From Candidatus Eiseniibacteriota bacterium (GTDB lineage Bacteria; Eisenbacteria; RBG-16-71-46): 42,846 nucleotides of DNA. The stretch lies in NCBI GenBank assembly GCA_036845125.1, contig DAIUEO010000007.1, positions 1 to 42,846 on the forward strand, in the 5' to 3' direction. Shown here piece by piece: positions 11,648 to 27,773 of this stretch (the first letter of the stretch is position 1; every line of letters starts with the position of its first letter). The notes under the pieces were generated by a model that saw only the letters and a list, made by a program, of their open reading frames with translations, did not search any database and was not told the origin of the DNA. Position numbers and translations under genes: made by a program.

Positions 11648-11676
11648 GCGACCAGAGCCCCGATTGGAGGCGGATC

Positions 11677-13005
11677 ATGAACCTCTGTGCCCTCAACGTC
11701 GTCCTTCTCGTGTTGCTGATGACGGACGGTAACGCCGCGACGTCCGCTCCGGACCCGAACCTCACCCGGGAGATCCGCGCCCTGATCGAGTCGGCGCGTG
11801 GCGCCCCGACTGTCCTCTGCGAATACGCGGCGCGCTCGCTTCAGAACGGCTGGGGCTGGACGGATGCTCCGGCGTCTCCGCTCGGCACCCGCTCGCGCCG
11901 CATTCACAAGCGGCAGATGTCGGCGGCCGACATCCAGTTCCTGCTCGGGAGCCTCGATACTCCCGACCCCTGCGTTCGTGAGCTGGCCGTTCGACTGGTC
12001 GCCAGCGTCGATCGCGAAGAGGTCACGACCGGGCTCATCCAGCGACTCGCCTCGAGCGATTCGGCGATCCGTGTGGTGGCCGCACTCGGCCTCGGGATCT
12101 CACAGCCCGAAAAGGCGGTCGACCCGCTGATCCGCGCGACGGGCGACGCTTCGTCCAGCGTGCGCGCGAACGCGGTGTGGGCGCTGGGCCGGATCGGAGA
12201 CCGTCGCGCAACGGCATCCGTCACCAGATGCCTCGACGACAAGTCGGCGCTGGTGCGTCGCACCGCCGCCGGAGCGCTGGGGCATCTCGAAGCGACCAGC
12301 GCACTGCCCGGCCTGGTGCGGGCGCTCCAGATCGACCGCGAGCCCCAGGTCCGGCGCGTCGCGGCGTGGGCCATCGTCCAGGTCGACGATCACGGATCCG
12401 CCCCGGACCTTGCCGTGGCGCTCAAGAAGGATTCCGACGCTGAGGTCCGCGAGATGTGTGCGTGGGGCCTCGGCAACCTCGACGACGGCAGCTCGTCGAT
12501 GGCTGCGCTGATCGCGGCCGCGAAGAGCGACGCCGATGAAGACGTGCGCGAGGCCGCGACCTGGTCGCTCGGCGAGCACGGCGAGGCATCCGCCGCCGCG
12601 GTGCTGGGGGAACTGGTCGCGCACGATGCTAGCGACGAAGTCCGGCGCACGGCGGCGTGGGGGCTCGGTCAGCTCGGTCTCGACTCGGCGCCCAAAGGGT
12701 TGATCGACGCCATCGCTTCACCGGATGCCGAGATGCGGCTCACCGCCGCCTGGGCGCTCTCCGAGATCGGCGACCCGGCGGCGCTGCCGGCACTGCGAAC
12801 CGCGCTGTCGAAGGAGAAGAACGACCGCGTGCGCAAAGCGATCCTGCGGGCACTCGTCCACTCGGGAGAGCGCGCGGAGCGCATGAGCGAGCTGCTCGAG
12901 TCGAAGGACCCCGAGGTGCGGAAGATCGCGGTGCAGGCGGTCGCTGGCAAGGACGGCATGGACCCGTGGCCGTGGCCGCAGCCACGCCCGCGTCCATTTC
13001 CCTAG
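11677..13005 (+). CDS. Secreted HEAT-repeat protein, 442 aa
   Basis: ATG 11677 is preceded by GGAGG. Signal peptide MNLCALNVVLLVLLMTDGNAATSA. There are about ten HEAT-like units (…SVRANAVWALGRIGD…, …VRRTAAGALGHL…, …VRRVAAWAIVQ…, …VREMCAWGLGNL…). It ends in DPWPWPQPRPRPFP. Confidence 0.85.
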   Translation: MNLCALNVVLLVLLMTDGNAATSAPDPNLTREIRALIESARGAPTVLCEYAARSLQNGWGWTDAPASPLGTRSRRIHKRQMSAADIQFLLGSLDTPDPCVRELAVRLVASVDREEVTTGLIQRLASSDSAIRVVAALGLGISQPEKAVDPLIRATGDASSSVRANAVWALGRIGDRRATASVTRCLDDKSALVRRTAAGALGHLEATSALPGLVRALQIDREPQVRRVAAWAIVQVDDHGSAPDLAVALKKDSDAEVREMCAWGLGNLDDGSSSMAALIAAAKSDADEDVREAATWSLGEHGEASAAAVLGELVAHDASDEVRRTAAWGLGQLGLDSAPKGLIDAIASPDAEMRLTAAWALSEIGDPAALPALRTALSKEKNDRVRKAILRALVHSGERAERMSELLESKDPEVRKIAVQAVAGKDGMDPWPWPQPRPRPFP

Positions 13006-13014
13006 ATCACGCCC

Positions 13015-16000
13015 CTACTCGACCTGGACCTGGAAGGTGACGCTGCCGGTGGCGCCCGGATCGAGCGGGCCGCTGAGCGTCCAGCGCAGTGGGCCCGTGC
13101 CGTTGACCGGGGGCTGCACGGTGACGCCACAGGCGGAGAGGCCGGTGCCGAGGGAACCGCATGAGGCCGACTGGAAGCGCGAATAGGGCGGCACCATGTC
13201 CTGGATCTCGATCGCGGTCAGCGGCGCCGCGCCCATGTTCGTGTAGGCGATGGTGTAGGTGATCACGTCGCCCGGCAGCACGGTGGCGGCGCTCACGCTC
13301 TTGACGAGGCGCAGGCTGCCGGCGTCGAGCACGGTGGTCCGGTCGTCGAGCTGCACCAGGGTGGCAAGCGCGGGAGCGGCTCCGGTGTAGCTCATGCTCG
13401 CCGACAGCGTCACCTGCTCGAGCGCTCCGTCGGGTGCACCCGCCGGGGTCGTATGGTGGAGTACGAGGCACACGATCTGTCCCCCGGTCACGGCGAGCGG
13501 GCCGCTGATCGCGGGCTCGCCCGCGTCCACTGTGCCGTCGCAGTCGAGATCGCGATACAGCACGGCGCCCCATCCGGGGAGCACCGGCAGCGGGGCCTGG
13601 GTGAGTGTGAACGTCACGTTGCCCGCGCTGCCTGCCACGAAGTTGTGCGGGTGGTAGACGGCCGCCCCGGCTGCCGCCGACTGCATGCCGGGCGGCACCA
13701 GCTGGTTGGGTGGCACGTCGCCGAAGTTCACACCCGTGTACGCGTTTCCACTCGCGGGCGTGAACGTGATGCGATCCGTCGCCCGCGTGTACGTCCCTCC
13801 CGTGGTCCCGACGCCGCCTCCGGTCGAGATCCAGCCGGACGCATTGGTCTCGAACACCGCCGCCGCCGATCCCGAGGCCGCGTGCTCGATCCACAGCGTG
13901 TAGGAGCCACCGCCGCCGGTGAGGGTGCTGTCGCAGACGCCGCCGGCGCACGCGGCGCTCTCGATGCGCACGTGGATTCCGGTGAGGCCGGACTCACCGG
14001 CCTGCGGGATGCCGTCGTTGGCGGCGGCGCCACCCGCGCCGTCGTCGCGGAACGCGAGCCCAACGATCCGGCTGCCGTGCCAGAGACCGAAGTCCTGGTC
14101 CACCACGTTGGTGGCGACGACAGTGAGTGACCGCGTGCCGGCCGGGGCCTCGGTTCCGATCCAGCCCGCCGGATACGTGGCCGTCACGTCGGTGGCCACG
14201 GCGTTGTCGTCGAGCACGAGCGTGTAGTTGCCGGCCGGCACGAACCCGATGCTCCAGACGCCGGTGACCGGATCCACCGCGACCACCGTCTGGGCGGTCG
14301 CCGGTGAGGTGGATGCCACGAGCTTCACGAACAGCGCGGAGCTGGTGCCGACTTCCGTGCCGTCGCGGTTCATGCTGTGGTTCAGGTCTTCGTAGCCGAA
14401 GCCGCTCACCATGATTCCGCCGGTCACCTGGACGAGTCCCGAGAACTCGGAGGTCGCTAGCGCCACGGTTGCGGTCGCGGTTAGCCGCGCGCCCGACGTG
14501 ACGGCGCCCGGCGTCGGAATCGTGAACCGGAACCGGTTCGTGTTGTCGCTGCCCTGGTCCACCCCGTTGATCGGACCCGAGTAGGCGCCGGTCGTGGCAT
14601 CGAGATCGGCGCCCGAGCCCTCCGTGAGGGACGCCGCCCAGGTCTCGCCTTCGCCGAACCCCGAGGGATCGGGGTTGGCGACGAAGAGCTCGATCTCCGA
14701 GCCGGGGCGCGCCCAGCCGGTGAGCGTGATGCTGCCGGCCGCGATCACCGCCGACTCGATCACCGGGAAGTTCAGGAGGCCGTTGCCGCCGGCGTCGCCG
14801 TCCGCGTTGTCGTTGAGCGTGACGAACGGGCTGGTGCCGCGTGCGGCATCGTTCGCGGCGGCGAGCAGGTCGATGCCGAGCTGGCCGCTCGGGCCGCCGA
14901 GCCCGCCGGCGATCGTGCCGTTGCCGCGCATCGAATTGCGCGTGAGACGCGAGGTCGAGGCGGTCGACGCCACCATCACGCCAGCGCCGTAGTTGTCCAG
15001 CAGCACGCAGCGGTCCACCGTGTTCGCCGTCCCTCCCAGGCGGATGCCCGGAGTCTCGACGCTTCCCGCACCGAGTCCGCTGCGGGTGACCGTGTTGTTC
15101 TGGAGCGTGTTGGAGCCGGCGCTGGTCGCCGCATCGATGCCGGGCCCCTCGTGGTTCGCGATCCGGTTGCCGCGCACGGTGGCGACGCCGCTCGCCTCGA
15201 GGCCGAGCCCATCGCGCGTCGGATTCCCGATCGCGTTGCCGAGGATTTCGTTGGCGAGCACCTGCCAGCCATCCGAGCCGCCGGTGAGCGCGATCCCGGA
15301 ACCCGCCGCGAAGCCGACGAGCCCGTTGCGCACGATGCCGTCGTCACCGCCGGTCGCGCGCACCAGATCGCCGCCCGAGCGCGCACCCGCGCCGGGATCG
15401 GTGAACCCGGTGGCGGGCGTGCCGAGCGCGCAGCCATCGAGGAACGCACGATGGGCGACCGCGCCGATGCGCACCACCGCGTTCGCGTCGCTGCCGGCGG
15501 CGTTGCCGAATCCCCAGGCGGAGAGGCGCGCGATCGTGATGTCGGTCGCCTGGAGATCGAGCCCGATCGCGAGGCCCGCGCCGTCCCGGATCTCGACCTC
15601 GGGTCCGGCCACCGACGGCATCGCGAGCGCGTCGACGCCCGCGGTGCCGCCGGCGCCGAGTGTGACGCCGTTGGTGTTGCCGATGTTGAGGGTCTGGAGC
15701 GAGCCATCCACGGTCGTCAACGCCCCGGTGATCGCCGGGAGCGCCGACAGCACGGTCACCCGCACCACACCGCCCGTCAGGAGGCTCGGCAGTCCGGCGC
15801 GCAGGCCCGGATGGGCCGCGCCGTCGGTGACCATGAAGATCGCGTTTTCGGTTCCCGCGGTGAGTCCCGCCTGGGCGAGGCCGGCGTTCCCGAGCGCGTT
15901 CGAGTTGAGCAGGAACTGCCGCAGGCTGCCCTGGGCGGCGTCGTTCGCATTCACCACCGTGCTGAAGTTGAAGCCAAAGTCCATGCCCGCAAGGTCGGCG

Positions 16001-17934
16001 GTGCCGAGCGTGAGCGGGGCCTGCGACTGCGCGGTGGTGGTCACCGTCGTCAGCGAAGCGAGCGATGCGTTCGAGAGGTTGGAACCCGCGTCCACGAGCC
16101 CCGGGCTCTCGCCGCCCACGCGCGTGACGTCGTTCACGGCAGCGCCGCTCGTCGCATCGGTCCGGAAGGTCAGCACCGGCACGAGACCCGGAGCCGCGCC
16201 CGGCCGCGAAGAGGTCACGGTGCCGTCCACCACGCGCACCGTGTAGTTGCCGGGAGTCCAGCCGCCGAAGCTGAAGTCGCCGGCGGCGCCGGTGGTGGCG
16301 AATGCCCGGTAGGCGCCAGTCGCGTCGTAGAGCTCGACCCGTGCGCCCGGCCGTCCCACGCCGCCCGATGCCAGGCGCGCGCGGCCGGCGCCGCCTCCGT
16401 AGTTCACGTCCTCGAACACGATGCCCGAAATCGTCGGGGCGGTGACGCTGAGGTTGGTGCGCTGGGCGCTCGTGACCGTGGTGTCGGCGTCGCTCAACGC
16501 GGTCAGCGCCGTGCCGAGTTGCGCGGCGTTGAAGTCGGTGACCGCCTGGTTCGAGACGACCGTGCCGGTCGGGGATGGCGCGGTGACCGCGACCCGGAAC
16601 CGGAACGAGGTCTGGACGCCGGGGTTGATCTGTCCGCCGGCCGCAGCGGTGGCGCCGACGCCGAGCCGGAAGAGGACGCGGTTGCCGGCGGCGTCGAAAT
16701 TGGCCTGGTCGTCACCGCCCGCGTCCGACTTGGCCCCGGCGTTCGGACCGTTGAGGACGACCAGCGAACCCGGCACGTAAGCGGTGTTGGCCGGGATCGT
16801 GTCGCGGGCCACCGTGTTCACCGACGCGTCGTTGCCGGTGTTGAGGACGCGCACGGTGTACTCGAGAACGTCACCCGGACGGGCCGGCGCGCCGTTCAGG
16901 TCGACGACCGACTTGAAGTTACCGTTGCCGATCAGCACCGGCTGGTAGAGCTCGGTCGAGAACGCCACCGCGCTCGGGTAGTAGCGGTCGTTGGTCGAGG
17001 TGAGCTGGATGGTGGCGCTGGTGGCGCCGTTGGCGAGGACGCCGTTCGCGCTCACGAGGTCGGCGTCGAAGCCGAGCTGGTTCAGGTAGTTCGGGTTCTT
17101 GGCCGTGAAGCTCGCGCCGAGCAGCGAGACCGAGCTGTTGAAGAAGTTGTCCGCCGGATTGGTGGCATCGGTGAGCACGGTGGCGTTGAGCCGGAACGCG
17201 TCACCGTTGAAGTCGCGGTCGCCTTCGTAGGCCACGACGCCGAGGCTGGTGTTGACCGCCCCCGCCGGCGGCGTGAGGAATCCGCTCACGGGGATGTTGA
17301 CCGAGGCACCGGGGTCGATCTCGGCGTAGCCGTCGAACACCGTCAGGTTGCGCGGCGGATCGGCGGCGCGACGGTAGACGACGACCAGCGACCACCCTGC
17401 GTAGTTGTTGGCGCCGGTCGTGGAGGAGACGCCGCCGACCGTGTACTGGCCGCTGCCGCCCGCCTGGACCCGCACCGTGACGTCGTCGAACGCCGAGTAG
17501 GCCTGGGCGGTGGCGTCGAGCTGGTCGGCGGTCAGCGTGACGTAGGCGGCAGCCGGGGTGGCGAAGCGGCACGTGTTGCGTGCGGCAGCGTTGCTGAAGC
17601 CGCCCCAGTAGAGTCCGGCCCACAGCACGGTCGCGCCCGCGGGCAGCGTGAGCGTGGCCTGGCTCGAATTGAGCGTGGCGATGTCCCCGTCCACGTCCAC
17701 GTACTGCATGTCCCAGTCGTTGTTGTTCTGGTTGTTTCCGTTGCCGTTGCGGGCGTTGTTGCAGTTGCCGCCGCCCGTGCAGCTCATGAGGGTGTTGCCG
17801 ACCAGCGTGATGCCGCCGTTGTCGTTGGTCGTGTAACGCGGGGTGAAGCCGCGGAAGATCTGGGCATTCGCCGGCGCCGCCGCGAGGAACACGGCGAACA
17901 CCGCGAGGACGAGCGCCAGCGGGCGGCGGATCAT
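13015..17934 (-). CDS. Giant secreted adhesin-like protein, 1639 aa
   Basis: ATG 17934-17932 (MIRRPLALVLAVFAVFLAAAPANA) overlaps the upstream stop (ATGA). Domains in order:
- an N-terminal lectin/jelly-roll-like domain
- a DUF11 domain
- an SdrD-B/Cna-B-like domain: ISGIVFEDVNYGGG…GARVELYD…GNYTVRVV
- parallel beta-helix repeats: …RGNRIANHEGPGIDA…NNTVTRSG…DNYGAGVMV…
- a terminal DUF11 domain: LRLVKSVSAATVLPGDVITYTIAYTNMGAAPL…SVTFQVQVE. Confidence 0.9.
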   Translation of the reverse strand: MIRRPLALVLAVFAVFLAAAPANAQIFRGFTPRYTTNDNGGITLVGNTLMSCTGGGNCNNARNGNGNNQNNNDWDMQYVDVDGDIATLNSSQATLTLPAGATVLWAGLYWGGFSNAAARNTCRFATPAAAYVTLTADQLDATAQAYSAFDDVTVRVQAGGSGQYTVGGVSSTTGANNYAGWSLVVVYRRAADPPRNLTVFDGYAEIDPGASVNIPVSGFLTPPAGAVNTSLGVVAYEGDRDFNGDAFRLNATVLTDATNPADNFFNSSVSLLGASFTAKNPNYLNQLGFDADLVSANGVLANGATSATIQLTSTNDRYYPSAVAFSTELYQPVLIGNGNFKSVVDLNGAPARPGDVLEYTVRVLNTGNDASVNTVARDTIPANTAYVPGSLVVLNGPNAGAKSDAGGDDQANFDAAGNRVLFRLGVGATAAAGGQINPGVQTSFRFRVAVTAPSPTGTVVSNQAVTDFNAAQLGTALTALSDADTTVTSAQRTNLSVTAPTISGIVFEDVNYGGGAGRARLASGGVGRPGARVELYDATGAYRAFATTGAAGDFSFGGWTPGNYTVRVVDGTVTSSRPGAAPGLVPVLTFRTDATSGAAVNDVTRVGGESPGLVDAGSNLSNASLASLTTVTTTAQSQAPLTLGTADLAGMDFGFNFSTVVNANDAAQGSLRQFLLNSNALGNAGLAQAGLTAGTENAIFMVTDGAAHPGLRAGLPSLLTGGVVRVTVLSALPAITGALTTVDGSLQTLNIGNTNGVTLGAGGTAGVDALAMPSVAGPEVEIRDGAGLAIGLDLQATDITIARLSAWGFGNAAGSDANAVVRIGAVAHRAFLDGCALGTPATGFTDPGAGARSGGDLVRATGGDDGIVRNGLVGFAAGSGIALTGGSDGWQVLANEILGNAIGNPTRDGLGLEASGVATVRGNRIANHEGPGIDAATSAGSNTLQNNTVTRSGLGAGSVETPGIRLGGTANTVDRCVLLDNYGAGVMVASTASTSRLTRNSMRGNGTIAGGLGGPSGQLGIDLLAAANDAARGTSPFVTLNDNADGDAGGNGLLNFPVIESAVIAAGSITLTGWARPGSEIELFVANPDPSGFGEGETWAASLTEGSGADLDATTGAYSGPINGVDQGSDNTNRFRFTIPTPGAVTSGARLTATATVALATSEFSGLVQVTGGIMVSGFGYEDLNHSMNRDGTEVGTSSALFVKLVASTSPATAQTVVAVDPVTGVWSIGFVPAGNYTLVLDDNAVATDVTATYPAGWIGTEAPAGTRSLTVVATNVVDQDFGLWHGSRIVGLAFRDDGAGGAAANDGIPQAGESGLTGIHVRIESAACAGGVCDSTLTGGGGSYTLWIEHAASGSAAAVFETNASGWISTGGGVGTTGGTYTRATDRITFTPASGNAYTGVNFGDVPPNQLVPPGMQSAAAGAAVYHPHNFVAGSAGNVTFTLTQAPLPVLPGWGAVLYRDLDCDGTVDAGEPAISGPLAVTGGQIVCLVLHHTTPAGAPDGALEQVTLSASMSYTGAAPALATLVQLDDRTTVLDAGSLRLVKSVSAATVLPGDVITYTIAYTNMGAAPLTAIEIQDMVPPYSRFQSASCGSLGTGLSACGVTVQPPVNGTGPLRWTLSGPLDPGATGSVTFQVQVE

Positions 17935-20900
17935 CGTCCACCTCCCGCGAAGCCGCCGAGAATGGATTCGTCGAAGCGCGCGCGCACGCGCAGGTAGACG
18001 CCGGCCCGCGTGTACGCCTCGTCGGGCAGGTCGCGATCGTAGTAGCCGAACCGGTTCCATCCCGCCGACATCCACGCGCCCTGCTGGATCTGGTAGCCGA
18101 GCTCGCATCCGAGCCCGTTGTCGTGGGACCCGGGGCCGAACAGCGTGCTGGCGTGGACGCCCGCGTCCCACTGCTTCGCGAAGGTGCGCGAGAGTCGGCC
18201 GTGCAGCCACTGCGCGCCCGTGCGGGTGTCGAGCCCATCGGAGCTCTCCCCCGCCAGCTTGCCCGCCCATCCCAAGGAGGCCTGGAGCGACCGGGCGAGG
18301 CGGCCGGTTGAGTTCAGGGCCACCATGTGTGCGAGGTGACGGGTGCGATGCGTGGCATCGGTTGGCTCGCGATCGATCCTCAGCTCGTAGCGGCCGAGCG
18401 CATCGAACGCCTCGCGATCCGGGTTCCGGTACGCGAAGCCGAGCTGGGTGCGCATCCGCACCGCATTGCCGCGGTCGTGGCCGCGATTGATGTCGGTGAG
18501 GGTGCGGCCGATCACGCTCCAGGCACGGTTGGCCCGGAACGCGCCCGCCATCGTCATCAAGTAGCCGTCGCTCGCGCGCGACGTGCGGAGCTCCATGCGG
18601 GTGGACACCTTGACGTTGGGGTCATCGAGGGATTCGAGGCCGCCGGTCACCGCCGTGGTCGGGCCGTTTCCGTCTGCCTCGAACGAGGTCAGCCGCTCGA
18701 AGCTGGTATTGATCCGATAGGCACCCACCCGCCACGCGTTGCGCAGACCCATCACCGCTTCGGCTTCGCGGGCGGCGAACGCGTCGGCCAGGCGGTATTC
18801 GCTGAAGACACGCGAGCTGCGGGTGATGTCGGCGTCCACGCCGAGCACGGTGGCGAGGCGCCGTTGCGCCGCGTCGAAGGCGTAGGGGCCCGTGAGCGTC
18901 GAGGCCAGCTCGTGACGGGCGTAAAGGCGGCCGCGCGTGGAGAAGCGGTACTCCCCGCCGACTGCGGCCAGCCGGCGGTCGGTATCGACCACGTCCTGCT
19001 CGAGCTCGGCGAAGCCGCTCAGCTCCGGAAACCTCGGCAACTGCGACGTGAGCTTGGCGCGCAGTGCGAGGCTCGGCGGATCCTGGACGGCTCCCGGGGT
19101 CCGCGTCGAGGACGCGCGCACGCCGAATTCGCCGCGGCTGCCGCCGCCGAGGCGGCGATCGAGCGCGATCAGCATGCCGCCGCGCAACGCACCGGCGGCT
19201 TCCGACGTGAACATGCCCTCGGAAAGCAGCTGCAGGCGCTCGTCCACGCGGCTCGTCCAGCGCATGCCGAACTCGGCGCGGCCCGGGGCGTAGCCCGAGT
19301 GCGGGTTGGAGAAACCGGTGTCGGTGTTCGCCGCCCAGAAGCGGCCCTGCGCGTCCGGCCGATCGTGCACCGCCTCGAAACGCCAGCCGCCGGCCGGAAC
19401 CCCGCCGGCCGCGGTGCGTGCGAACTCGGCTTCGAGGCGCGTGGACTCGCCCATCCGGGTCGCCGCGAACACGCTGCCGAGCCGGTAGGGGCGCGTCAGG
19501 TCGTCGTCGGCCACCACGCTGCCGCCGAGCTCGACCCGGCGCGCCACCTGGGCGCGGCCTTCGACACCGCCGACCCAGTAGGGGTCGCCTCCATCACGCG
19601 TCTCGTAGCCGATGCGGACCGACACCGGGTTGAGCTCGGCGTCGTAGCCCGGCACCGGCTGCTTGAACAGCAGCCGCCCGGTGTACGGATCGAGCTCGTA
19701 GTCCACGAACCGCGTCTGCGGGGTCGCCGACCGCACGATGCCCGGCTGGTTGCGATCCCGCACCAGGATCTCGACCTGCTCGCTGTTCTCGATGATCGGC
19801 GCGCGCGACACGGTGTAGGGACCCGAGACGCCGAGCCCGCGCAGCTCGTCCACGGTGCGCTGCGCGCGGCCGCGGCTCGCGAACGCGTCCATGCGCATGC
19901 GGCGGTTCTCGAAGTGCTGCTGGACGCCGGTGAGGCTGCGGCTGTAGGCGCCCAGGCTGCGCCCGCCGCCGGAAGGGTTGGTGACGAAGTCGCCGTAGAG
20001 CAGCGAAGCGCCCGGACGATCGAGGCGCGCATACAGGCTCCCGGTCGACTGCGCGGTGTAGCCGCGCACCGACCCGTCGCCGTAGAGCGGATAGAACGCG
20101 TCGGGCTGGATGTCGCGGAAGCGCCGCAGATCCTGCGGCCGGTCGGAGTCGTAGCCGAGCGTCAGCAGCAGATCGCCGGCCACCCGCCCGCGCGCGAACA
20201 GCGAGCCGCGCGCGCCACCGGCGAGCCGGCCATCGCTGCTTTCGGTGGCCAGGTCCTGGAACGGCTGCTCGAACCCGCTGCGCGCCCGGTACGGGGTGGA
20301 GACGCCGGTCAGGCGTTGGTTCCAGCCGACCTTCCACTCGAGCGAGCCGACCATGAACAGCGGACGCAGGTCGGGCAGGAAGTCGACCGAAGTCCGGGCG
20401 CGCAGGCCGGCGACGGTCGCCGTGATCGTCGCGGTTCCGGGCTGTGCGGGGGCGCGCAGCCGGAACTCGGCGAGGCCGCCCTCGACCACGGTCTGGACGC
20501 CGGGCGTCACCGGGTCGGCATCGTCGACCAGCAGCTCGCCGGCGCCGGCTTCGAGCGTCGCGGGCAGCCGGCCGGCGACCGGCACGCCGTTCTCGTCGAG
20601 CGCGCGCACGCGCACCGTGGTGATGCTGCGCCCGTCGGCGGCGAACACGGCGGGGGCGTCGATCTCCACGCGCGCCAGGCGGTCGGGCACGATCAGCGTG
20701 ATGGACCCGCGCGTGCCTTCGCTGCCGTCCGCGGTGCGCTCGACCAGCTCGAGCGTGTTCACGCCCGGCCGCAGACGAACGCCGATGTAGTCCCAGGTCT
20801 GGAGCCCGGCCGCGGCATTGAGCCGGCGCATGCCGACCCGGGAGAGCGACACCAGCTCGCTGTTGACCCGGAGCTCGAGGACGCAGGCACTGTTTCCGGC

Positions 20901-22658
20901 GACCCGCAGCGTCGCCTGGTCGGTGGTGAGCGTGTCGCCGTCCTTCCGGCCGACGAAGCCGAACCACTGCCAGGTGTCGGGCGGAGCGGTTCCGTCCTCG
21001 GCGCCCGCCGGAGGCGGCTGCACGTACGGCGGAATCACACCCGCGTATCCGCCCGGACCGGGGGCCGCCAGCGTGGGACCGGAGGGCCCTGGCGATGACG
21101 GTCGCGACGGAGCGTCGGCCTCACCCCACTGCGCGGACGTCGGCCGCGAGCGCGGATCGCCCGGCAGCGTGCCGGTTTCTTCCGCGTTCAGCGGGCGCCT
21201 CACGACGGCCCCGAGCGGTCCGTCGCGGGCGATCATCTCGCGGCGCTCCTGGGGCGCGACGCGCGTGACCGAGTCGGCGGCGATCGCGAAGTCGGCCCGC
21301 TGGAAATCGCCGCGCTGGAGATCCACGAACCGGAAGCCCGGCGTTCCGGCATCCCGGTGGTCGAGCGAAATCAGCTTCGCGCCGTCCGGCAGCGAGGTCG
21401 GATCGACCCGGAGCCCGTGCGTGCGCGGGGTGAGGCCGTAGAGGCTGTACTGGCCGAATCCGTCAGTGATCGCGAACGTGCCGTCGTCGAGCACGATCCG
21501 CACGCCGGCCAGTCCCGCGTCGCCGGCGCCGCGCCGGCCGTCGGAGTCGAGGTCCACGAACACCGTGCCGAGCAGGCCCGCCTCGTCGGCGAAGATCCGG
21601 TCCAGGATCACGACGGACGCCGTCGCGACGTTGGACTGGGCGATGAGCGCCACGGCGCTCGCCCGCGAGATGGCTTCGCCGGGCTCGGCGCCTGGGCCGA
21701 CGCGAACGCGGTAGCGCAGCGTCACGATCTGCGCGGGCGCGAGCGCGCCGATGTCGAACGCGAGCGTCGGTCCGGCACCGCCCGCGGGATCGGGCAGGAC
21801 GAGCGAATCGCCGCGCGTCGTGCCGGTCAGGTAGGCGAACCCGGGCGGCAGGGAGACGCTCGCGAGCGTCGGCCCGATCAAAAGGCTCGAGGTGTTGGTC
21901 ACGCGCGCCGTGAAGTCCAGCGCATCGCCGATCTCCGCGGTGTTCCGCGATGGCACCAGCTCGATCCGCAGTGCCGCCGGTCCGTCGGGGTCGGTGCTCG
22001 CGGTGTCCACGACCATCGCCGGCACGGCCTGGCCGACGGTGGTGGCGGACAGCCGGAACCGGGCCACCGAGCCGGCCGGCGCCGAGAGATCCACGTCGAA
22101 GCCGATCAGGACGCGCACCGTGCCGTCGAGCGGCAGGTGCACGACTCCGCCGGGGGTGATCGTGCTGTCGCCCGGACTCGGGAGACCGTCGGTGTCGTCG
22201 TCGCGCACGAGCGCGAACCCGGAGAGATCGAATCCGTCACCGGGTTCGTTCGCGACGTCGAGGCGCACGTCGACCGGGACGTTGCTCGCGTTGGTGAGCC
22301 GGTGCAGGAACACACCCCTCAGGCCGCGGCCGAAGCGCGCGCCCTGCGGTGCGTCCCACGCGATCGACTCCAGCGCGTCGACCCGGGCGCGGACGGTGTT
22401 CGAGGTCACGGTGATCGGAACCGCCAGCGTGTCGAGACCGTCGGCGGTCGCGGTGTTGTCTACGAACGACCCGGGCGCGGGCCCGGCGGTGGGCGCCGGG
22501 TTCCGGCCGGAACCCGCCGACTGGGAATTTGCGCGCGCGCGCGTATAAGTAAGCGACACCCCGGCGAGCACACACAGGAACACCACGGCACACCAGGTGC
22601 GTGTGCGTGGCGTTCGCTTGCGCGGCTTCTGCTGTTTCCCGTCCGGAGATGTCGTCAT
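17931..22658 (-). CDS. 1575-aa outer-membrane protein: N-terminal DUF11/Cna-B/Big_1-like domains plus a very large predicted C-terminal beta-barrel
   Basis: The start is ATG 22658 (MTTSPDGKQQKPRKRTPRTRTWCAVVFLCVLAGVSLTYTRARA). DUF11-like repeats are followed by LLGTVFVDLDSDGRRG…GVRIVLDDG…GQYSLYGLTP, then an invasin-like Ig unit (…TATITATVAGLRARTSVDFLP). The remaining ~800 residues have alternating beta-strand-like sequence rich in Y/F/R/G and end in …AGVYLRVRARFDESIL…. Confidence 0.85.
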   Translation of the reverse strand: MTTSPDGKQQKPRKRTPRTRTWCAVVFLCVLAGVSLTYTRARANSQSAGSGRNPAPTAGPAPGSFVDNTATADGLDTLAVPITVTSNTVRARVDALESIAWDAPQGARFGRGLRGVFLHRLTNASNVPVDVRLDVANEPGDGFDLSGFALVRDDDTDGLPSPGDSTITPGGVVHLPLDGTVRVLIGFDVDLSAPAGSVARFRLSATTVGQAVPAMVVDTASTDPDGPAALRIELVPSRNTAEIGDALDFTARVTNTSSLLIGPTLASVSLPPGFAYLTGTTRGDSLVLPDPAGGAGPTLAFDIGALAPAQIVTLRYRVRVGPGAEPGEAISRASAVALIAQSNVATASVVILDRIFADEAGLLGTVFVDLDSDGRRGAGDAGLAGVRIVLDDGTFAITDGFGQYSLYGLTPRTHGLRVDPTSLPDGAKLISLDHRDAGTPGFRFVDLQRGDFQRADFAIAADSVTRVAPQERREMIARDGPLGAVVRRPLNAEETGTLPGDPRSRPTSAQWGEADAPSRPSSPGPSGPTLAAPGPGGYAGVIPPYVQPPPAGAEDGTAPPDTWQWFGFVGRKDGDTLTTDQATLRVAGNSACVLELRVNSELVSLSRVGMRRLNAAAGLQTWDYIGVRLRPGVNTLELVERTADGSEGTRGSITLIVPDRLARVEIDAPAVFAADGRSITTVRVRALDENGVPVAGRLPATLEAGAGELLVDDADPVTPGVQTVVEGGLAEFRLRAPAQPGTATITATVAGLRARTSVDFLPDLRPLFMVGSLEWKVGWNQRLTGVSTPYRARSGFEQPFQDLATESSDGRLAGGARGSLFARGRVAGDLLLTLGYDSDRPQDLRRFRDIQPDAFYPLYGDGSVRGYTAQSTGSLYARLDRPGASLLYGDFVTNPSGGGRSLGAYSRSLTGVQQHFENRRMRMDAFASRGRAQRTVDELRGLGVSGPYTVSRAPIIENSEQVEILVRDRNQPGIVRSATPQTRFVDYELDPYTGRLLFKQPVPGYDAELNPVSVRIGYETRDGGDPYWVGGVEGRAQVARRVELGGSVVADDDLTRPYRLGSVFAATRMGESTRLEAEFARTAAGGVPAGGWRFEAVHDRPDAQGRFWAANTDTGFSNPHSGYAPGRAEFGMRWTSRVDERLQLLSEGMFTSEAAGALRGGMLIALDRRLGGGSRGEFGVRASSTRTPGAVQDPPSLALRAKLTSQLPRFPELSGFAELEQDVVDTDRRLAAVGGEYRFSTRGRLYARHELASTLTGPYAFDAAQRRLATVLGVDADITRSSRVFSEYRLADAFAAREAEAVMGLRNAWRVGAYRINTSFERLTSFEADGNGPTTAVTGGLESLDDPNVKVSTRMELRTSRASDGYLMTMAGAFRANRAWSVIGRTLTDINRGHDRGNAVRMRTQLGFAYRNPDREAFDALGRYELRIDREPTDATHRTRHLAHMVALNSTGRLARSLQASLGWAGKLAGESSDGLDTRTGAQWLHGRLSRTFAKQWDAGVHASTLFGPGSHDNGLGCELGYQIQQGAWMSAGWNRFGYYDRDLPDEAYTRAGVYLRVRARFDESILGGFAGGGR

Positions 22659-22743
22659 GAAGCCGATCCCCGCCGCTCCCCCGGGCGTCGCCTGGCGGCG
22701 ACGCCCGTGCGGGAACGGTCGGATGGGGCTGTGGGATGTCGTG

Positions 22744-25344
22744 CTACGGATCGATCCGGACGCCGAACGTGATCGTCGCCGAGGCTCCCGGCGCGAGCAC
22801 CCCGACCGTGGCGGTGATGGTTCCGGTGGCTCCGTTGGCCGGGGCCACGATGAGTCCCTGGGTGGTCGCCGCCGGCACCGTCGCCGAGTACGTCGTGTTG
22901 GCGGGCGTGGCGTCACTCAGGACCACGTTCGACACCGACGCGGTGCCGACGTTGGTCACGACGATCTCGTAGCGGATGCACGCTCCGGGGAGCGCCCCGG
23001 TCGTGATGTCCGTGATCGCGAAGGCGCCGTCGGGAAGACCGTCGCATCCGGCGTCGATCACGTGACTCTTCACCACCTGGAGCTGGCCGTTCAGCACCGT
23101 GGTCAGGTCGGTGGCGTTGACCACCGCCGGGACCGGCGAGACATAGGTGACGTTGGTCGTGGGCGCGGACAGCGTGGTCAGGTTGGTCGCCACGAGCGGA
23201 GCGCCGGCCGGCGAGAAGGCGCGCACGAACAGTCGCACGCTGGCGCCCGGCGCGAGCCCGCCGATCGAACCCAGATCGGCGATCAAAGCGTCGCCGCCGT
23301 CGAGCGAGCCGTTGTTGTTGGTGTCCACGTAGAGCGCCGAGTTCCACGAGGCGCCGCTGTTGCCCATGGTCAGCGAGACCACGCTCGCCACCCCGTCGCC
23401 TTCCGCCACGTTGCCGGAGTTCGACAGGATGTGCGTGTAGACGGTCGAGCCGCCCGGCGTCACCTGCCCGCTGTTGTTGGGCACCAGCGTCAGGCTGCGG
23501 GTGGCGTTCACCGTCACGGCATCGTGGATGGGGTCCTGGGCGAACGACACCGGTGAACGCGAGCGGAAGAAGATGCTCGTCGTGCCCGCCGCGTTGCCGG
23601 CCGGCACCGTGACGTCGGCGTACACCAGCATGTTGGCCGCGGAGGCGATGTTGCCGGTGCTCGTGATCGGCGTGTTGGCCCCGTCGCGGAAGGTCACCGA
23701 CCAGCCGGCAGGCAGCGTGAACGCCCCGAACGTATTGTCGGTGCTGGCCTGCAGGTCGAAGTTGTCCGCGACGGCGCTGTTGTTGTTGACGTACAGCGTG
23801 AACCGGGCGGTCGCTCCCGGATTGGTGGCGACGGTGACGACGGCGAAGGCTTCCGGGCCGGGTCCATTGCCGGGGCCGCCCGGGGTGGTGTTCGTGAGGT
23901 CCACGGCACTGGGAATGATGTTGGTCAGGTTGTCGAACGCCGTGGCATTGATGGCCGGATTGACGACCGAGGTCGCGATCTTCTGGACCATGTACGGTCC
24001 GCCGGTCGCGGTCGGCGCGAGGGTGACGCGCAGCACGACGTTGTACCCGACCCCGGGAGCGAGCGGACCCGTGTCGGGGGTGCCGTTGGCGTTGGTGTCG
24101 GTGAGCGGCGTGACGCCGTCGCTCTGGTAGAGCGCGTAACCGGTGCCGCCCGGGAACGTCGAGAACCCGAACGTGATGTCGAAGCGGTCGGTGCCATTGC
24201 CGGTGTTGGTCACCATGTTCGAGAACGACACCGTCGCGCCCTGGGGCGCGGACGCGATCGACTGGCCGCTGAAGTTGAGCGAGACCGTCTGATCGACCGT
24301 GAACGGCGCGAAGTTGGTCGCGAACGGACCGACGTTGGCGGCGCCGTCGTTGTACGAGTAGCTGGCGTTGTTGTTGATCGTCTGCGGCCCGAGGCCGGGG
24401 CTGACGTTGACCTGGAACGTCACCGTGCCGTTCGAGCCCGGGGTCACCTGAGCGATGGTGGCCGTCATGGTCCCGCCGGCGGTGGCGCCGAAGTCGTAGA
24501 AGATCTGATTGGGTGCCACGCCCTGGCCGTCCGCTGCGCTCGCATCGGTCAGCACGGTGGCGCCGGTCACGCTCCACCTTCCGCTGCCCGCCACGTAGGT
24601 CATGCCGGGGGGAAGCACGTCGGTGAGGAGCACGTTGGTCGCGGTGCTGTTGCCCGTGTTCGTGTAGGACAGGGTGTAGGTGTAGGGACCGCTCGGCGAG
24701 GCGCCGTTCGGCTGGTTGATCCCCTTCGTGACGCTCACCACCGCGTTCCCCGTCACGGTGACGACGTCGAGGTTCGCGCCGGTCTGGCCGGCATCGAAGG
24801 TGCTCAGCGCGCTGATCTGCATGCGGCCGATCTGACCGCCGATCTGCGTGCCCGGAACGCTTCCCACCACGACGAAGCGGAAGTCCGCGCCTGCCGCGAG
24901 AGCGCCGGTGGTGTTGAGCGCGACGAAGTTGTCGGGAACCCCGTCGCCGTTGAAGTCGGCGTAGATCGCGAGCCCGGTCAGGTCGAAATCGTCCGCCACC
25001 TGGTTGGCCAGCGTCAGCGGGAAGGTGTCGGTGCCGTTGCCCGTGTTGGAGAGAGTGTGGGGGAACGTCACCTGGCCGCCGGGCGCCGTGGTGGCGTTGC
25101 CGTTCGCGGTCAGCGAGAAGCTCGCCACCTGCTGGACGATCGTGTTGACGACGTTCGACGTCGCGGTGCGCGGTGTTGCGGTCGCGTCCAGGTACTGGGC
25201 CGAGGCCTGGTTACCGATGGTCGTGCCGGCGGGCGGCGCGGCCGCGGCCGGAGCCGCGACCATCGCAACGCCGAGCGCGAAACACGCCGCCGACACCGCC
25301 GCGAGCGCGACGGCGCGCGCGCGTTCGAATGAAGAGGACTTCAT
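22744..25344 (-). CDS. DUF11 (conserved repeat domain) multi-repeat surface protein, 866 aa
   Basis: ATG 25344 is preceded by GGGAG. Signal peptide MKSSSFERARAVALAAVSAACFALGVAMVAAPAAA. The protein has tandem units of about 110 aa with N-T-G-N motifs (HTLSNTGNGTDTF, LSYTNTGNSTATNVLLTDVLPPGMTYVAGSG, MVTNTGNGTDRF, IVVTNVGTASVSNVVLSDATPANTTY). Confidence 0.9.
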   Translation of the reverse strand: MKSSSFERARAVALAAVSAACFALGVAMVAAPAAAAPPAGTTIGNQASAQYLDATATPRTATSNVVNTIVQQVASFSLTANGNATTAPGGQVTFPHTLSNTGNGTDTFPLTLANQVADDFDLTGLAIYADFNGDGVPDNFVALNTTGALAAGADFRFVVVGSVPGTQIGGQIGRMQISALSTFDAGQTGANLDVVTVTGNAVVSVTKGINQPNGASPSGPYTYTLSYTNTGNSTATNVLLTDVLPPGMTYVAGSGRWSVTGATVLTDASAADGQGVAPNQIFYDFGATAGGTMTATIAQVTPGSNGTVTFQVNVSPGLGPQTINNNASYSYNDGAANVGPFATNFAPFTVDQTVSLNFSGQSIASAPQGATVSFSNMVTNTGNGTDRFDITFGFSTFPGGTGYALYQSDGVTPLTDTNANGTPDTGPLAPGVGYNVVLRVTLAPTATGGPYMVQKIATSVVNPAINATAFDNLTNIIPSAVDLTNTTPGGPGNGPGPEAFAVVTVATNPGATARFTLYVNNNSAVADNFDLQASTDNTFGAFTLPAGWSVTFRDGANTPITSTGNIASAANMLVYADVTVPAGNAAGTTSIFFRSRSPVSFAQDPIHDAVTVNATRSLTLVPNNSGQVTPGGSTVYTHILSNSGNVAEGDGVASVVSLTMGNSGASWNSALYVDTNNNGSLDGGDALIADLGSIGGLAPGASVRLFVRAFSPAGAPLVATNLTTLSAPTTNVTYVSPVPAVVNATDLTTVLNGQLQVVKSHVIDAGCDGLPDGAFAITDITTGALPGACIRYEIVVTNVGTASVSNVVLSDATPANTTYSATVPAATTQGLIVAPANGATGTITATVGVLAPGASATITFGVRIDP

Positions 25345-25438
25345 GGGGACACTCCCTGTGTGTGCTACGGGGTTCACGGGCGTCCGTGCCGGGCGGGGGT
25401 GGGCACTGACGAGCTTGATCAAGGAAGACGTCACGGGA

Positions 25439-25945
25439 TCACTTCGCGGCGGCGGCCGACAGGATCGGCGTCACACGAACGCGGGCCTTCACGGTCTTTT
25501 CCTGCTCCGGACCGAGCGTGCCGAGAGACCAGCGCAGGTAGCGGTACTCGGAGAGCGGGACGTCGCGCGTCACTTCGCGACCGTCGGCGAGCCGCACCTT
25601 CCGCCGGAGCGGCATCGGCGCGTAGCTCGAGCCGTCGAGACTCGCCATCGGACCCGCCGGGGCGGCCGTGCTGGCCACCAGCTCGGTGCCCGCGGGGATC
25701 GGCAGCGTGGCGAGCAGCTTCTCGACGCCCTTCGCGCCCTGGTTCGTGTAGACGGCGCGGTACTCGACGAGCTGGCCGGGCTTGATCTCCTCGGCCGGCG
25801 CCAGCACCTCGATCCCGCGGTCGTTCTTCTGCACGCGGTGAGCGGTGAGCTGGATCTGGACCTCTGCGTGCGCCGCGACGACACCCGCGATGGTCAGCAG
25901 TAGGGCCATGACCGCGCCAAGACGGCGAGGTGGGGTCAGACGCAT
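25439..25945 (-). CDS. Small secreted single-domain DUF11-like beta-sandwich protein, 168 aa
   Basis: ATG 25945 is preceded by a strong AAGGAG. Signal peptide MRLTPPRRLGAVMALLLTIAGVVAAHA. The pattern …IKPGQLVEYRAVYTNQGAKGVEKLLATLPIPAGTELV…WSLGTLGPEQEKTVKARVRV is DUF11-like. The longer track ORF adds an Arg-rich extension that I reject. Confidence 0.75.
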   Translation of the reverse strand: MRLTPPRRLGAVMALLLTIAGVVAAHAEVQIQLTAHRVQKNDRGIEVLAPAEEIKPGQLVEYRAVYTNQGAKGVEKLLATLPIPAGTELVASTAAPAGPMASLDGSSYAPMPLRRKVRLADGREVTRDVPLSEYRYLRWSLGTLGPEQEKTVKARVRVTPILSAAAAK

Positions 25946-26052
25946 CGCTGGTCTCCTTCGTTGTGTCCCTGGTCGCTTACGTCGGCGTCGCCGGGACGAC
26001 AGCGGCACCACGCGTGAGGGGCGAAACGCAATGCGCTGCGCCAAATGACCGT

Positions 26053-26077
26053 GCCTGCCTCGATCCTTCGGGCAGGC
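26053..26077 (-). terminator. Hairpin GCCTGCC-N11-GGCAGGC between the beta-helix gene and the DUF11 operon
   Basis: It has a perfect 7-bp GC-rich stem. It lies 137 nt after the stop at 26214 and 108 nt before ATG 25945. No U-tract follows on the minus strand, so its role as terminator or attenuator is tentative. Confidence 0.3.
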
Positions 26078-26213
26078 TTCCTCGACGCGGGTTATCGGAA
26101 GAGAGGGCGGGGGGATTTAGCCCGGTTTACGGGCAGGGGAAGCGGGGGGCGTTTCGGGGGAAATGGCGCGGCAGGGCGCCGCGCCGGTTCGAATTCGGGA
26201 CTCCAGGCTGAGG

Positions 26214-27773
26214 TCAGCCTCCGATGAGCACGATCCGCTGGGTCTCCCGCAGGGGTCCGGCTTCCAGGCGCAGGAGATAGACGCCTGGAACGACGCGATC
26301 GCCCTGCTGGTTCAAGCCGTCCCACGTGCGCCGGTGGCGGCCGGTATCGAGGGTCTCATCGGCCAGCACCCGCACGCGCCGGCCGGCGGCATCGAACACT
26401 TCGAGCCGGACGGGCGAGCGCGAGGCCAGCTCGAAGCGAACCGCCGTCCGCTCCGCAGCGGGGTTGGGCTCGGGAGCGAACAGGACCGTGCGCGTGGGAG
26501 CCAGGAGCTGCTCATTGCCGGGAGCGACGTCGACCACCGCGGTGACCACCAGGGTGAGGGACGTGTCGTCGTAGATGGGGGCGAACTGCGGCATGGTGTA
26601 CGGGTTCCCCGGCACCACCACGATGCGCTGGAAGGTCGCGTTGCGTGAGCCGAACGACAGGACGTGGAACTGGTCGCCCACGTTCGGCGTGTACGGGCCG
26701 ATCATCACGACCCGCAGCGTGTCCCTCATCTTGAAGTTGCCGGTGACGACCAGGCGGTCGTGCTCGGTCACCGGGTGGATTCCCGCGATCTCGATCTCGA
26801 TGGCGCCGTTCACCTGCTGATTGAGGGCGCCCTCCACCACCAGCCGCCCGGGCGAAGCGCCGGGCTCGATCCTCCCCCGGTTCACCAGAGCGCTGGCCGG
26901 GAGCATCGCGGTCTCGCTGCCGCGCAGCACGCCACCGGGCGAGACGTGGAACGGGAACCCCGTGACCAGGACGACGTTGTTGAGGAGATCGAACGTGCCT
27001 TCGACGAGAATGGATGCGTCGATCGGAATGAGGGCCTCGGTGACACGGGTCACACCGCTGGCCACGAGCAGAGGCACGCCGTAGGTCCCGGCGTTCAGCT
27101 GCAGCTCGCTCGCGCCCTGTGTGCGGAGGGTGCCGGCGCCCGTCACCACGCCCGGCGCCAGGAAGGGTTCTCCCACGATGAGCTGGGCGCTCTCCAGGGT
27201 GAGCGTCAGGCCCACGTCGACGATCAGTTCGCCCATCACACGCACCACGAAGGGTCCACCCGCCGACGGACCCAGCGTGATGTCGTTGGACGGCACCAGG
27301 ACCGAGGCCGCGTCGACGAAGATCCCGAGTCCGGTCCACGCCCCCGCACCGCTCACGTTCTGAAATCCGGTGCCGGCGAACTCCACCGCGGGAAGCGAAA
27401 TCGTTCCATGGTTCGCGAGCGAGGTGCCGGCATACACCAGCCGCGTGGTGAACGGGCCCGTCCCGCTCACGGTGCCCTTGTTGGTCAGATCCGCATCGAC
27501 CTGCAGCGTGATGCCGGTTCCTACCCGCAGATCCGCACCCTCGTCGACGATCAGGTCCCGGATTTCTGTGTTCGCCGTCACCACGACGGGCTGGAACCCC
27601 AGGTTGAAGACGATGGCCTGGTCGCCGACCTTCGGCACCCCGGCGGGATCCCAGTTGGAGGGCTCGTGCCAGTCGTCACTGGTGCCGCCCACCCACTTGA
27701 GCGTGGCGGCGGTCGCGAATCCGGGGAGGAGAAGCAGCGCAAGGAGGACGGGTAGGGCTCGAGCAAAGGGCAT
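26214..27773 (-). CDS. Secreted beta-helix/autotransporter-repeat-like protein with a T9SS/FlgD-Ig-like C-terminal domain, 519 aa
   Basis: ATG 27773. Signal peptide MPFARALPVLLALLLLPGFATA. TLKWVGGTSDDWHEPSNWDP is a PATR-like opener. The C-terminus …AVRFELASRSPVRLEVFDAAGRRVRVLADETLDTGRHRRTWDGLNQQGDRVVPGVYLLRLEAG… matches the usual C-terminal sorting-domain pattern. Confidence 0.85.
   Translation of the reverse strand: MPFARALPVLLALLLLPGFATAATLKWVGGTSDDWHEPSNWDPAGVPKVGDQAIVFNLGFQPVVVTANTEIRDLIVDEGADLRVGTGITLQVDADLTNKGTVSGTGPFTTRLVYAGTSLANHGTISLPAVEFAGTGFQNVSGAGAWTGLGIFVDAASVLVPSNDITLGPSAGGPFVVRVMGELIVDVGLTLTLESAQLIVGEPFLAPGVVTGAGTLRTQGASELQLNAGTYGVPLLVASGVTRVTEALIPIDASILVEGTFDLLNNVVLVTGFPFHVSPGGVLRGSETAMLPASALVNRGRIEPGASPGRLVVEGALNQQVNGAIEIEIAGIHPVTEHDRLVVTGNFKMRDTLRVVMIGPYTPNVGDQFHVLSFGSRNATFQRIVVVPGNPYTMPQFAPIYDDTSLTLVVTAVVDVAPGNEQLLAPTRTVLFAPEPNPAAERTAVRFELASRSPVRLEVFDAAGRRVRVLADETLDTGRHRRTWDGLNQQGDRVVPGVYLLRLEAGPLRETQRIVLIGG

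Follow-up and report, generated by a model that had tools for sequence, protein, structure and literature searches.

Our results suggested that four co-directional genes, here called A, B, C and D, at positions 13015-25945 of a 42,846-nt stretch of DNA from Candidatus Eiseniibacteriota bacterium (GenBank GCA_036845125.1, contig DAIUEO010000007.1; hereafter the window), encode proteins that share immunoglobulin (Ig)-like domains between them. A, B and D end in a DUF11/CLIPPER (CnaA-like) Ig domain which, judged from its alignments, is cut exactly before its last two strands (the acceptor), and the N-terminal extension (Nte) of about 35 residues present in B and C is homologous in sequence to exactly the two strands missing from the acceptors (the donor). 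At the sequence level the evidence for these split domains is solid. We consider it rather probable that the cassette encodes a modular surface fibre of a diderm bacterium, with D as the tip, B, in one or more copies, as the shaft, and C as the anchor and probable pore, the subunits being strand-complemented and probably linked by isopeptide bonds, and with A as a non-covalent cap or chaperone.

The host is a diderm organism of freshwater sediment or groundwater, and the closest homologues come from Eisenbacteria. In agreement with the first-pass annotation of the window, the cassette consists of four open reading frames (ORFs) on the minus strand:

25439-25945, minus strand: gene A, 168 aa; secreted, with a single truncated DUF11-like domain, acceptor-like, without Nte
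22744-25344, minus strand: gene B, 866 aa; Ig-like domains in a row, with a donor Nte and a truncated acceptor DUF11 domain
17931-22658, minus strand: gene C, 1575 aa; signal peptide, Nte, Ig-like domains, Pro-rich disordered linker, two beta-sandwiches and a predicted barrel of about 810 aa
13015-17934, minus strand: gene D, 1639 aa; variable head, stalk and C-terminal acceptor DUF11 domain, without Nte

All four are real coding genes, since their GC content at third codon positions (0.82-0.92) is that expected in a genome of about 70% GC, and all four products begin with a Sec-type signal peptide. Two other details that had been read from the letters were also found: gene A, described as secreted and preceded by a Shine-Dalgarno sequence, has AGGAG 7 nt 5' of its ATG, and the stop codon of C and the start codon of D share the ATGA at 17931-17934. 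GGAGG lies within the end of C, and translation of D is coupled to that of C. The description of B as tandem DUF11 repeats held only in part: B carries two clear DUF11 domains, but other Ig-like domains are present too and the array is not uniform.

Split DUF11 domains and their divided triad

Scans with Pfam and NCBIfam models identified DUF11 (E 4.6e-11) and TIGR01451 (E 9e-16) in B, and DUF11, SdrD_B and Beta_helix/NosD in D, families of the kind that the first-pass annotation had named. With the Pfam DUF11 model (PF01345, cut-off 24.6 bits), B (43.5 bits) and D (36.8 bits) scored above the cut-off and A (20.4 bits) and C (17.0 bits) below it, the sub-threshold match in A having an E-value of 6.8e-4 and covering profile positions 6-84 of 114. 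In A, B and D alike the match stops at profile position 84 of 114, and each protein ends there too. Moreover, the homologues of B and D stop 0-4 residues past the strand '...tFgVkI' in nearly all complete ORFs, and the few exceptions to this cut-off point are apparently fragmented B ORFs. The acceptors and the donors of the window are the following:

22747-23121, minus strand: acceptor domain of B, residues ~742-866; DUF11 ending in '...ITFGVRIDP', with K759, D811 and C767/C789 invariant
13018-13362, minus strand: acceptor domain of D, residues ~1525-1639; DUF11 ending in '...VTFQVQVE', with the Lys in 'LRLVKSV' and the Asp in 'IQDMVP' conserved
25129-25236, minus strand: Nte of B, residues ~37-72, PPAGTTIGNQASAQYLDATATPRTATSNVVNTIVQQV; matches the two missing C-terminal DUF11 strands, with N45 invariant
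22362-22481, minus strand: Nte of C, residues ~60-99, ...GSFVDNTATADGLDTLAVPITVTSNTVRARV; donor motif as in B

The N-terminus of B, directly after the signal peptide, reads AAPPAG-TxIGNQASATYTDxSGxxRTxTSNxVxTxVQQV, and that of C carries the motif TxIxNxAxAxYxD......SNTVxVxV. The same sequence is found after '...tFqVnV' within complete internal DUF11 domains. A hidden Markov model (HMM) of the Nte recognised 49 of the 51 B ORFs, with 31-74 bits, and 37 C ORFs, with at least 15 bits (27 bits in the C protein of the window), in each case by their N-terminus. With A and D it gave no match above 8 bits, and its weaker matches fell at the ends of complete internal DUF11 domains.

Next, acceptors were joined in silico to the Nte of the same locus, and these chimeras were scored with an independent 149-position HMM of the complete internal B-family domain (residues 199-352 of the window's B). 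The acceptors alone align to HMM positions ~1-112, and with their cognate Nte the alignment reaches position 149. The gains in score were as follows:

B acceptor with B Nte: median gain +18.0 bits, positive in 48 of 49
D acceptor with B Nte: median gain +15.1 bits, positive in 28 of 28
B acceptor with C Nte: median gain +11.5 bits, positive in 33 of 33
D acceptor with C Nte: median gain +10.1 bits, positive in 23 of 23
A with B Nte: median gain +16.3 bits, 45 of 47 better than the reversed control

When the B Nte was reversed or shuffled, the gain on B or D acceptors was about 0 bits. The AlphaFold2 (AF2) model of B (mean per-residue confidence, pLDDT, 86.2) was consistent with these results: residues 42-69 of the Nte form four confident short strands (pLDDT 83-89), in a pattern also seen at residues 321-350, where the internal domain ends. 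If mature B starts at P37, the loop from I864 to N45 has 11 residues, the same as the internal loop from V314 to N325; note that the cleavage site of B is uncertain by a few residues and that this comparison depends on the P37 start. Foldseek searches with the B model returned only generic multi-Ig proteins and gave no functional assignment, and PDB sequence searches with whole B, whole D and a profile of the C family found only the DUF11 domain 9IFR and, for the N-terminal part of the C family, SdrD.

DUF11 has recently been renamed CLIPPER, and in PDB entry 9IFR an intramolecular isopeptide bond joins Lys715 to Asn806, with Asp748 (PMC12617251). B has such a triad, complete within one domain, in K207, D242 and N325, and this internal triad is invariant in 56 B homologues. 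In the terminal domains of B and D, only the Lys and the Asp are present in cis, and the Asn sits on the Nte of B or C. In the same 56 homologues N45 of the Nte and K759 and D811 of the acceptor were likewise invariant. In the loci from many phyla, conservation reached at least 90% for the Asn of the Nte, in both B (49 sequences) and C (37 sequences), and for the Lys and the Asp of the acceptor, each taken by itself, in both B (51 sequences) and D (38 sequences). In the D acceptor these two residues fall on the Lys and the conserved Asp of 9IFR, in an alignment that is itself weak (E 3.6). By alignment, then, the triad is divided, with the Lys (on the first strand) and the Asp in the acceptors of B and D and the Asn in the Nte of B and C. 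A is different: in 50 sequences it has no Lys at the triad position, and it reads 'ATLPIP' where B and D have 'sDatP', so that Thr replaces the Asp. Judged from these residues, A is an acceptor-like, catalytically dead domain.

Another possibility could be that the fibre is held together by donor strands only, the DUF11 domain being completed in trans with no intermolecular isopeptide bond and the Lys, Asp and Asn persisting as structural relics. We regard this as unlikely. Some DUF11 domains do lack isopeptide bonds (PMC12617251), oligomers of BsaA are SDS-stable even without the bond (10.1101/2024.11.04.621531), and the conservation of A, which has neither the Lys nor the Asp, indicates that non-covalent binding of the Nte is evidently useful. 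Relics, however, would be expected to drift, as they have in A, whereas the three residues are conserved across phyla exactly in the split pair and do not vary in the 56 B homologues.

The acceptors also contain cysteines. The invariant pair C767/C789 of B lies in an insertion of the acceptor domain (window ~22978-23046, minus strand), and the D acceptor carries a different conserved pair, 'SASCG...LSACG'. Both pairs are probably disulfides, which would fit folding in the periplasm.

Gene C and its predicted giant barrel

In the N-terminal half of C, the Pfam and NCBIfam scans gave only sub-threshold matches to Invasin_D3, SdrD_B and DUF11, and the last ~810 residues matched no Pfam or NCBIfam model and had no PDB sequence relative in a profile search. 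The C-terminal part of the protein was divided as follows:

20376-20933, minus strand: two beta-sandwich domains before the barrel, C residues 576-761, pLDDT 82-93
17934-20363, minus strand: predicted giant beta-barrel domain, C residues 766-1575, with ~38-41 antiparallel strands (AF2)
19629-19862, minus strand: plug-like beta insert in the barrel, C residues ~933-1010 (~75 residues), with two of the best-conserved motifs

The AF2 model of C residues 576-1575, made from a 62-sequence alignment (mean pLDDT 80.6, predicted template modelling score 0.65), consists of the two beta-sandwiches followed by an uninterrupted antiparallel meander of about 38-41 strands, an approximate count, with the beta insert within it. 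The second sandwich is Invasin_D3/Big_1-like (Invasin_D3 E 5e-7, under the gathering score), and intimin D00-D0 was among the Foldseek matches of the model. The insert carries the motifs VENSExVEIxVRDRNQP ... TGRLLFKxPVPSxDADLNPV, with invariant and near-invariant columns, and automatic selection took them as patterns for the genome scan described below. Foldseek searches of the PDB with the barrel model returned only outer-membrane barrels (SlpA, TonB-dependent transporters, LptD, MtrB and FimD), with template modelling (TM) scores of about 0.25 or less; the top matches were the SlpA complexes 8agd, 7zgx and 8ae1 (TM 0.18-0.23), and FimD scored 0.16-0.30. These matches assign no function to the barrel. 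The first-pass annotation had proposed a very large barrel for the C-terminal ~800 residues, and the all-beta meander and its structural neighbours bear this out; on the model, the C-terminal ~810 residues are a putative outer-membrane beta-barrel. It had also reported no sortase, usher, TpsB/POTRA or autotransporter motif, and the Pfam and NCBIfam scans of A-D likewise contained none; nor did the barrel show detectable kinship to a receptor, an usher, Omp85/TpsB, an autotransporter or another known class.

The last strand of the barrel is conserved (GVYLRVRARF in the window, GxYLRLRxKF in the family); it ends in Phe and is followed by a conserved DE. In a fused homologue an OmpA domain follows the barrel at the C-terminus, which speaks for an outer-membrane protein whose C-terminus lies in the periplasm. 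Close to the plug-like insert, C residues ~847-868 (window ~20055-20120, minus strand) carry the motif FRDIQPDxFYPxYGD, with several invariant residues in a region of pLDDT 28-40; to judge from its conservation, this may be a functional loop, involved in gating, Ca2+ binding or substrate binding.

An exhaustive phmmer search, for which the barrel domain alone was the query, gave 2,665 clusters (50% identity) with E-values up to 1e-3, and 1,181 with E-values up to 1e-30. The matches nearly always span the whole 810 residues and usually lie at or near the C-terminus of proteins of 1,500-4,600 aa. The barrel family alone is thus a large outer-membrane protein family without a Pfam or NCBIfam model. 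SprA, with 36 strands, has been called the largest known barrel, and AlphaFold DB omits proteins of more than 1,280 residues (bioRxiv 10.64898/2026.03.07.710327). The present family is probably absent from surveys of that database, since its members exceed this length.

The main role of the barrel might also be structural: like SlpA of Deinococcus, it would be an envelope component or porin to which a surface layer is tethered, and not a translocon, with B and D reaching the surface through the type II secretion system or BAM/TAM and being anchored there to C. This we judge improbable. It would agree with the SlpA complexes that head the Foldseek matches and with the OmpA peptidoglycan-binding domains of some homologues. 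However, the TM scores of those matches are low, and the Pfam scan of A-D contained no SLH domain match. Moreover, conservation in the barrel is strongest in the plug-like insert and the loop next to it, a hint at an active or gated channel, and the cassette moves among unrelated neighbourhoods and phyla without any other conserved gene, which argues that it is self-sufficient for export.

Distribution and genomic context of the cassette

Relatives were found by scanning one genome per species with motif patterns taken from a 12-sequence alignment of C. More than 590 genomes contained a relative, and 80 loci were retained. The four genes proved syntenic: in about 50 loci from many diderm phyla, A, B and C follow one another in this order and D is adjacent, most often downstream of C, and tblastn searches of the loci with the window proteins recovered A-B-C in practically all those whose upstream DNA was long enough. 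The gene downstream of C usually encodes a protein that shares the C-terminal ~500 residues of D and has a variable head; in Acinetobacter and Moraxella a D-like gene lies upstream of A instead. The ~50 syntenic loci belong to Beta- and Gammaproteobacteria (among them Acinetobacter and Moraxella osloensis), Geobacteraceae, Verrucomicrobiota, Acidobacteriota, Abditibacteriota, Nitrospiraceae and Eisenbacteria, and the 80 retained loci also include Alkanindiges and Gemmatimonadota. Close to distant homologues of C, with generic names or none, were found in Eisenbacteria, Polaromonas, Rhodoferax, Steroidobacteraceae and Usitatibacter, and the cultured carriers among the relatives include Acinetobacter spp., Moraxella osloensis, Polaromonas, Ramlibacter and Noviherbaspirillum.

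Each cassette contains one A-like, acceptor-like protein, one B of ~900 aa with donor and acceptor, one C with donor and barrel, and one acceptor-only D, and this donor/acceptor grammar is unchanged even where the gene order differs, as in Acinetobacter and Moraxella. Constraint is much tighter on B than on C. In the top 120 homologues of B, identity is 60-74% and length 846-894 aa; in homologues of C, identity goes down to 45-50% and length ranges from 1,500 to 2,600 aa. The closest relative (C 67% identical) has the same four genes, of 169, 866, 1830 and 1650 aa, next to suf genes and not to the neighbours seen in the window. In addition, all-against-all clustering of the flanking ORFs found no conserved gene around the barrel gene beyond A, B, C and D. 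Since the flanks differ and no further gene is conserved, the cassette is an autonomous module, mobile in evolution. Full-text searches of the literature (subscription-only works were outside their scope) yielded no description of the four-gene cassette.

In three loci (L016, L032 and L040) the B-like gene is present as two or three ORFs, with the donor and acceptor parts separated; these could be assembly or frameshift errors, or a genuine further splitting. The opposite arrangement is seen in metagenome-assembled genomes of Gemmatimonadota/Longimicrobiales (L050:2-14047 and L070:2-12694), where one ORF, longer than 4,200-4,680 aa, carries the barrel at its C-terminal end. The L050 polypeptide has 27 DUF11 domains, then a unit of DUF11, SdrD_B, Ig and barrel domains that is homologous to C from residue ~228 onward, and a terminal OmpA domain. 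Both fused ORFs run off the edge of their locus, and neither locus contains an A or B gene.

These fused forms make gene fission a plausible history, and it is conceivable, if very unlikely, that the half-domains are leftovers of such a fission with no role in assembly, C being a self-contained giant autotransporter-like adhesin or envelope protein and A, B and D being secreted independently; unused half-domains should decay, however, and here the break point, the donor motif and the triad have been kept in ~50 loci of many phyla, with a grammar that survives even a changed gene order.

Two further parts of D were delimited:

16945-17856, minus strand: head of D, residues ~27-330, with no Pfam or PDB match
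14917-15306, minus strand: right-handed beta-helix of D (NosD/Beta_helix), residues 877-1006, E 6.4e-11

The head is a variable module, since it is found after C in only a subset of the loci.

The remaining features of the window lie outside the four genes:

25946-26213, minus strand: leader/promoter region 5' of gene A, ending in AGGAG; the upstream gene stops at 26214
26214-27842, minus strand: co-directional gene upstream of A, 542 aa, with a C-terminal FlgD_ig domain
27873-29885, minus strand: chromate transporter gene (Pfam Chromate_transp)
30005-30089, minus strand: Rfam chrB-a RNA motif (56.1 bits, gathering score 43.9), directly 5' of the chromate transporter gene
9546-13005, plus strand: BlaR1/M56 peptidase fused to HEAT repeats, then a 462-aa all-HEAT protein, both converging on D
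612-2567, minus strand: ORC-CDC6-like ATPase (PF24389, E 6e-114)
2519-3091 and 2956-3510, minus strand: two overlapping ORFs over which a PRTase-CE protein (PF24390) is spread, possibly by a frameshift

The promoter scan upstream of A found no sigma-70 consensus, and its promoter and terminator matches were not above the shuffled expectation. The FlgD_ig gene was considered as a member of the cassette and rejected, as it has no counterpart beside the cassette in other genomes; the HEAT/BlaR1 genes, which are not conserved with the cassette, were rejected as well. Only 9 bp separate the stop codons of the all-HEAT gene and D, with no recognisable terminator between them. Positions 1-4000, which hold the ATPase and PRTase-CE genes, have a GC content of 0.56-0.60, compared with ~0.70 elsewhere, and look like an acquired conflict or defence module.

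Proposed assembly and comparison with known systems

We propose that, after Sec export, the Nte of one protein would complete the truncated domain of the next (donor-strand complementation), and that a spontaneous Lys-Asn isopeptide bond would then lock the joint, as in the engineered SpyTag/SpyCatcher pair. Because of the donor/acceptor grammar, only one polarity is available, D <- B(n) <- C. D, which has only an acceptor and carries a variable adhesin head, would be the distal tip; B, with donor and acceptor, would be the shaft, as a single copy or a homopolymer; and C, with donor and barrel, would be the proximal end and the covalent outer-membrane anchor. The N-to-C direction would then run continuously from the tip to the barrel, as it does in the single-polypeptide homologues of Gemmatimonadota. 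The coupling of C and D through their ATGA fits one tip per anchor. The very wide, plugged barrel probably passes the folded, cross-linked Ig domains over the outer membrane, in the manner of an usher or an autotransporter, and then holds the fibre. A would most likely bind the Nte reversibly, as a periplasmic capping chaperone, an assembly regulator or an alternative non-covalent cap. Of this scheme, we infer the locking by a covalent bond, the function of the barrel as a pore and what A does.

Several points weigh against the scheme. The HMM gain mainly reflects the homology of the Nte to the missing strands, not pairing of donor and acceptor, and when the same test was run on the B acceptor with the generic Pfam DUF11 model, the reversed Nte scored 37.4 bits and the real one 36.2 bits. 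Some C homologues have no Nte above the score threshold (e.g. L004-L007 and L015). An acceptor short of two strands should be unstable before assembly, and the cassette encodes no obvious protector of incomplete acceptors, since A is acceptor-like and not a strand donor. Polymerisation of B with B is a guess, and a 1:1:1 D-B-C chain fits equally well. Finally, the sequencing runs that hold the locus are DNA metagenome runs only, with no RNA runs among them.

If the fibre model is true, the cassette would be a new route to pili or fibrillar adhesins in Gram-negatives, beside the few known ones (chaperone-usher, type IV, type V, curli and the type I/type V secretion (T1SS/T5SS) adhesins), covalent isopeptide fibres would not be limited to the sortase systems of Gram-positives, and it would show how folded, internally cross-linked Ig domains cross an outer membrane. 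The split CLIPPER pair is also a possible source of new orthogonal protein-ligation tags, and the cultured carriers make the hypothesis directly testable. Only tentatively, and with a confidence that falls somewhat short of even, do we go further and suggest a new class of diderm fibre assembly and secretion, present in thousands of lineages, which would use natural split CLIPPER ligation, without a sortase or a classical chaperone, and export through a plugged barrel of ~40 strands that equals or exceeds SprA.

The system is new in that all its parts lack homology to known pilus or secretion machines; its principle has analogues. The closest in layout are the chaperone-usher pili (Fim/Pap), to which the first-pass annotation had likened the cassette as a fibre or adhesin system built from unrelated parts. 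This analogy was supported, and the incomplete Ig domains and their matching Nte deepen it: an incomplete Ig-like domain together with a neighbour's matching N-terminal extension, as recognised here from the alignments, is the defining logic of donor-strand pili. Both systems combine a small Ig-like protein and a shaft subunit with a large outer-membrane barrel that has a plug-like insert and with a two-part tip adhesin, and in both the tip has an acceptor and no extension, as in D/B/C, so that polarity is fixed by the grammar. In contrast, the predicted strands of the barrel number ~40 and not 24, barrel and proximal subunit form one polypeptide, the fold is a CnaA-like DUF11 completed by two strands in trans, the joint is probably covalent, and the small protein, A, is acceptor-like and not a strand donor. 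Membership of the chaperone-usher class was rejected, as C had no Pfam or NCBIfam match to an usher (PF00577, PapC_N/C) and the PDB profile search found no usher. A as a PapD-type, two-domain, strand-donating chaperone was rejected as well: it has no PapD_N or PapD_C match and is a single truncated, acceptor-like DUF11-like domain.

Type V secretion resembles the cassette in its N-terminal Ig-repeat passenger and C-terminal barrel (as in C and the fused Gemmatimonadota forms) and in the Big_1/Invasin_D3-like domain beside the barrel. It differs in that the fibre of the cassette would be assembled from separate proteins, and membership was rejected, with no PF03797, Omp85/TpsB or POTRA match in Pfam or NCBIfam and ~40 strands (AF2) compared with 12 or 16. 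SprA, the translocon of the type IX secretion system (T9SS), shares with C the very large single-chain outer-membrane barrel that could pass folded substrates; the strand estimate for C, 38-41 (AF2), is similar or larger. T9SS membership was rejected on the absence of a family match and of T9SS genes in the cassette.

Sortase pili, and SpyTag/SpyCatcher as the engineered equivalent of a split isopeptide domain, offer a parallel in their covalent isopeptide fibres of CnaA/CnaB-type Ig domains, whereas the linkage in the cassette would be autocatalytic and the host is a diderm. The sortase pathway was rejected, as the C-termini of A, B and D have no LPXTG or membrane anchor (B ends in ...GVRIDP and D in ...QVQVE) and no sortase is conserved near the cassette. 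The DUF11/CLIPPER fibrillar adhesins (PF01345; 9IFR; PMC12617251) belong to the same family, with the same Lys/Asp/Asn chemistry, and DUF11 forms the stalks of Gram-negative surface adhesins. In those described, the bonds form within one polypeptide, which is anchored through OmpA, T9SS or LPXTG, whereas in the cassette the terminal domain is split and the bond would be intermolecular.

Finally, the joint proposed here has a precedent in 'exchange and lock' filaments, the archaeal threads of Sulfolobus (PMC9715654) and the BsaA/TasA-family fibres of Clostridium perfringens (10.1101/2024.11.04.621531), in which an N-terminal donor strand enters the neighbour's sheet and is then locked there by an isopeptide bond that forms spontaneously between the subunits, over which the Asn/Lys/acid triad is split. 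Homology to TasA/BsaA or to thread subunits was rejected, with no such Pfam match in A-D, and the likeness of mechanism is one of analogy only. These filaments have other folds and no sequence kinship with the cassette, they occur in archaea and monoderms without an outer-membrane component, and their subunits are small and of a single domain; in the cassette, by contrast, split DUF11/CLIPPER domains stand at the ends of large multi-domain proteins and are coupled to a dedicated barrel.

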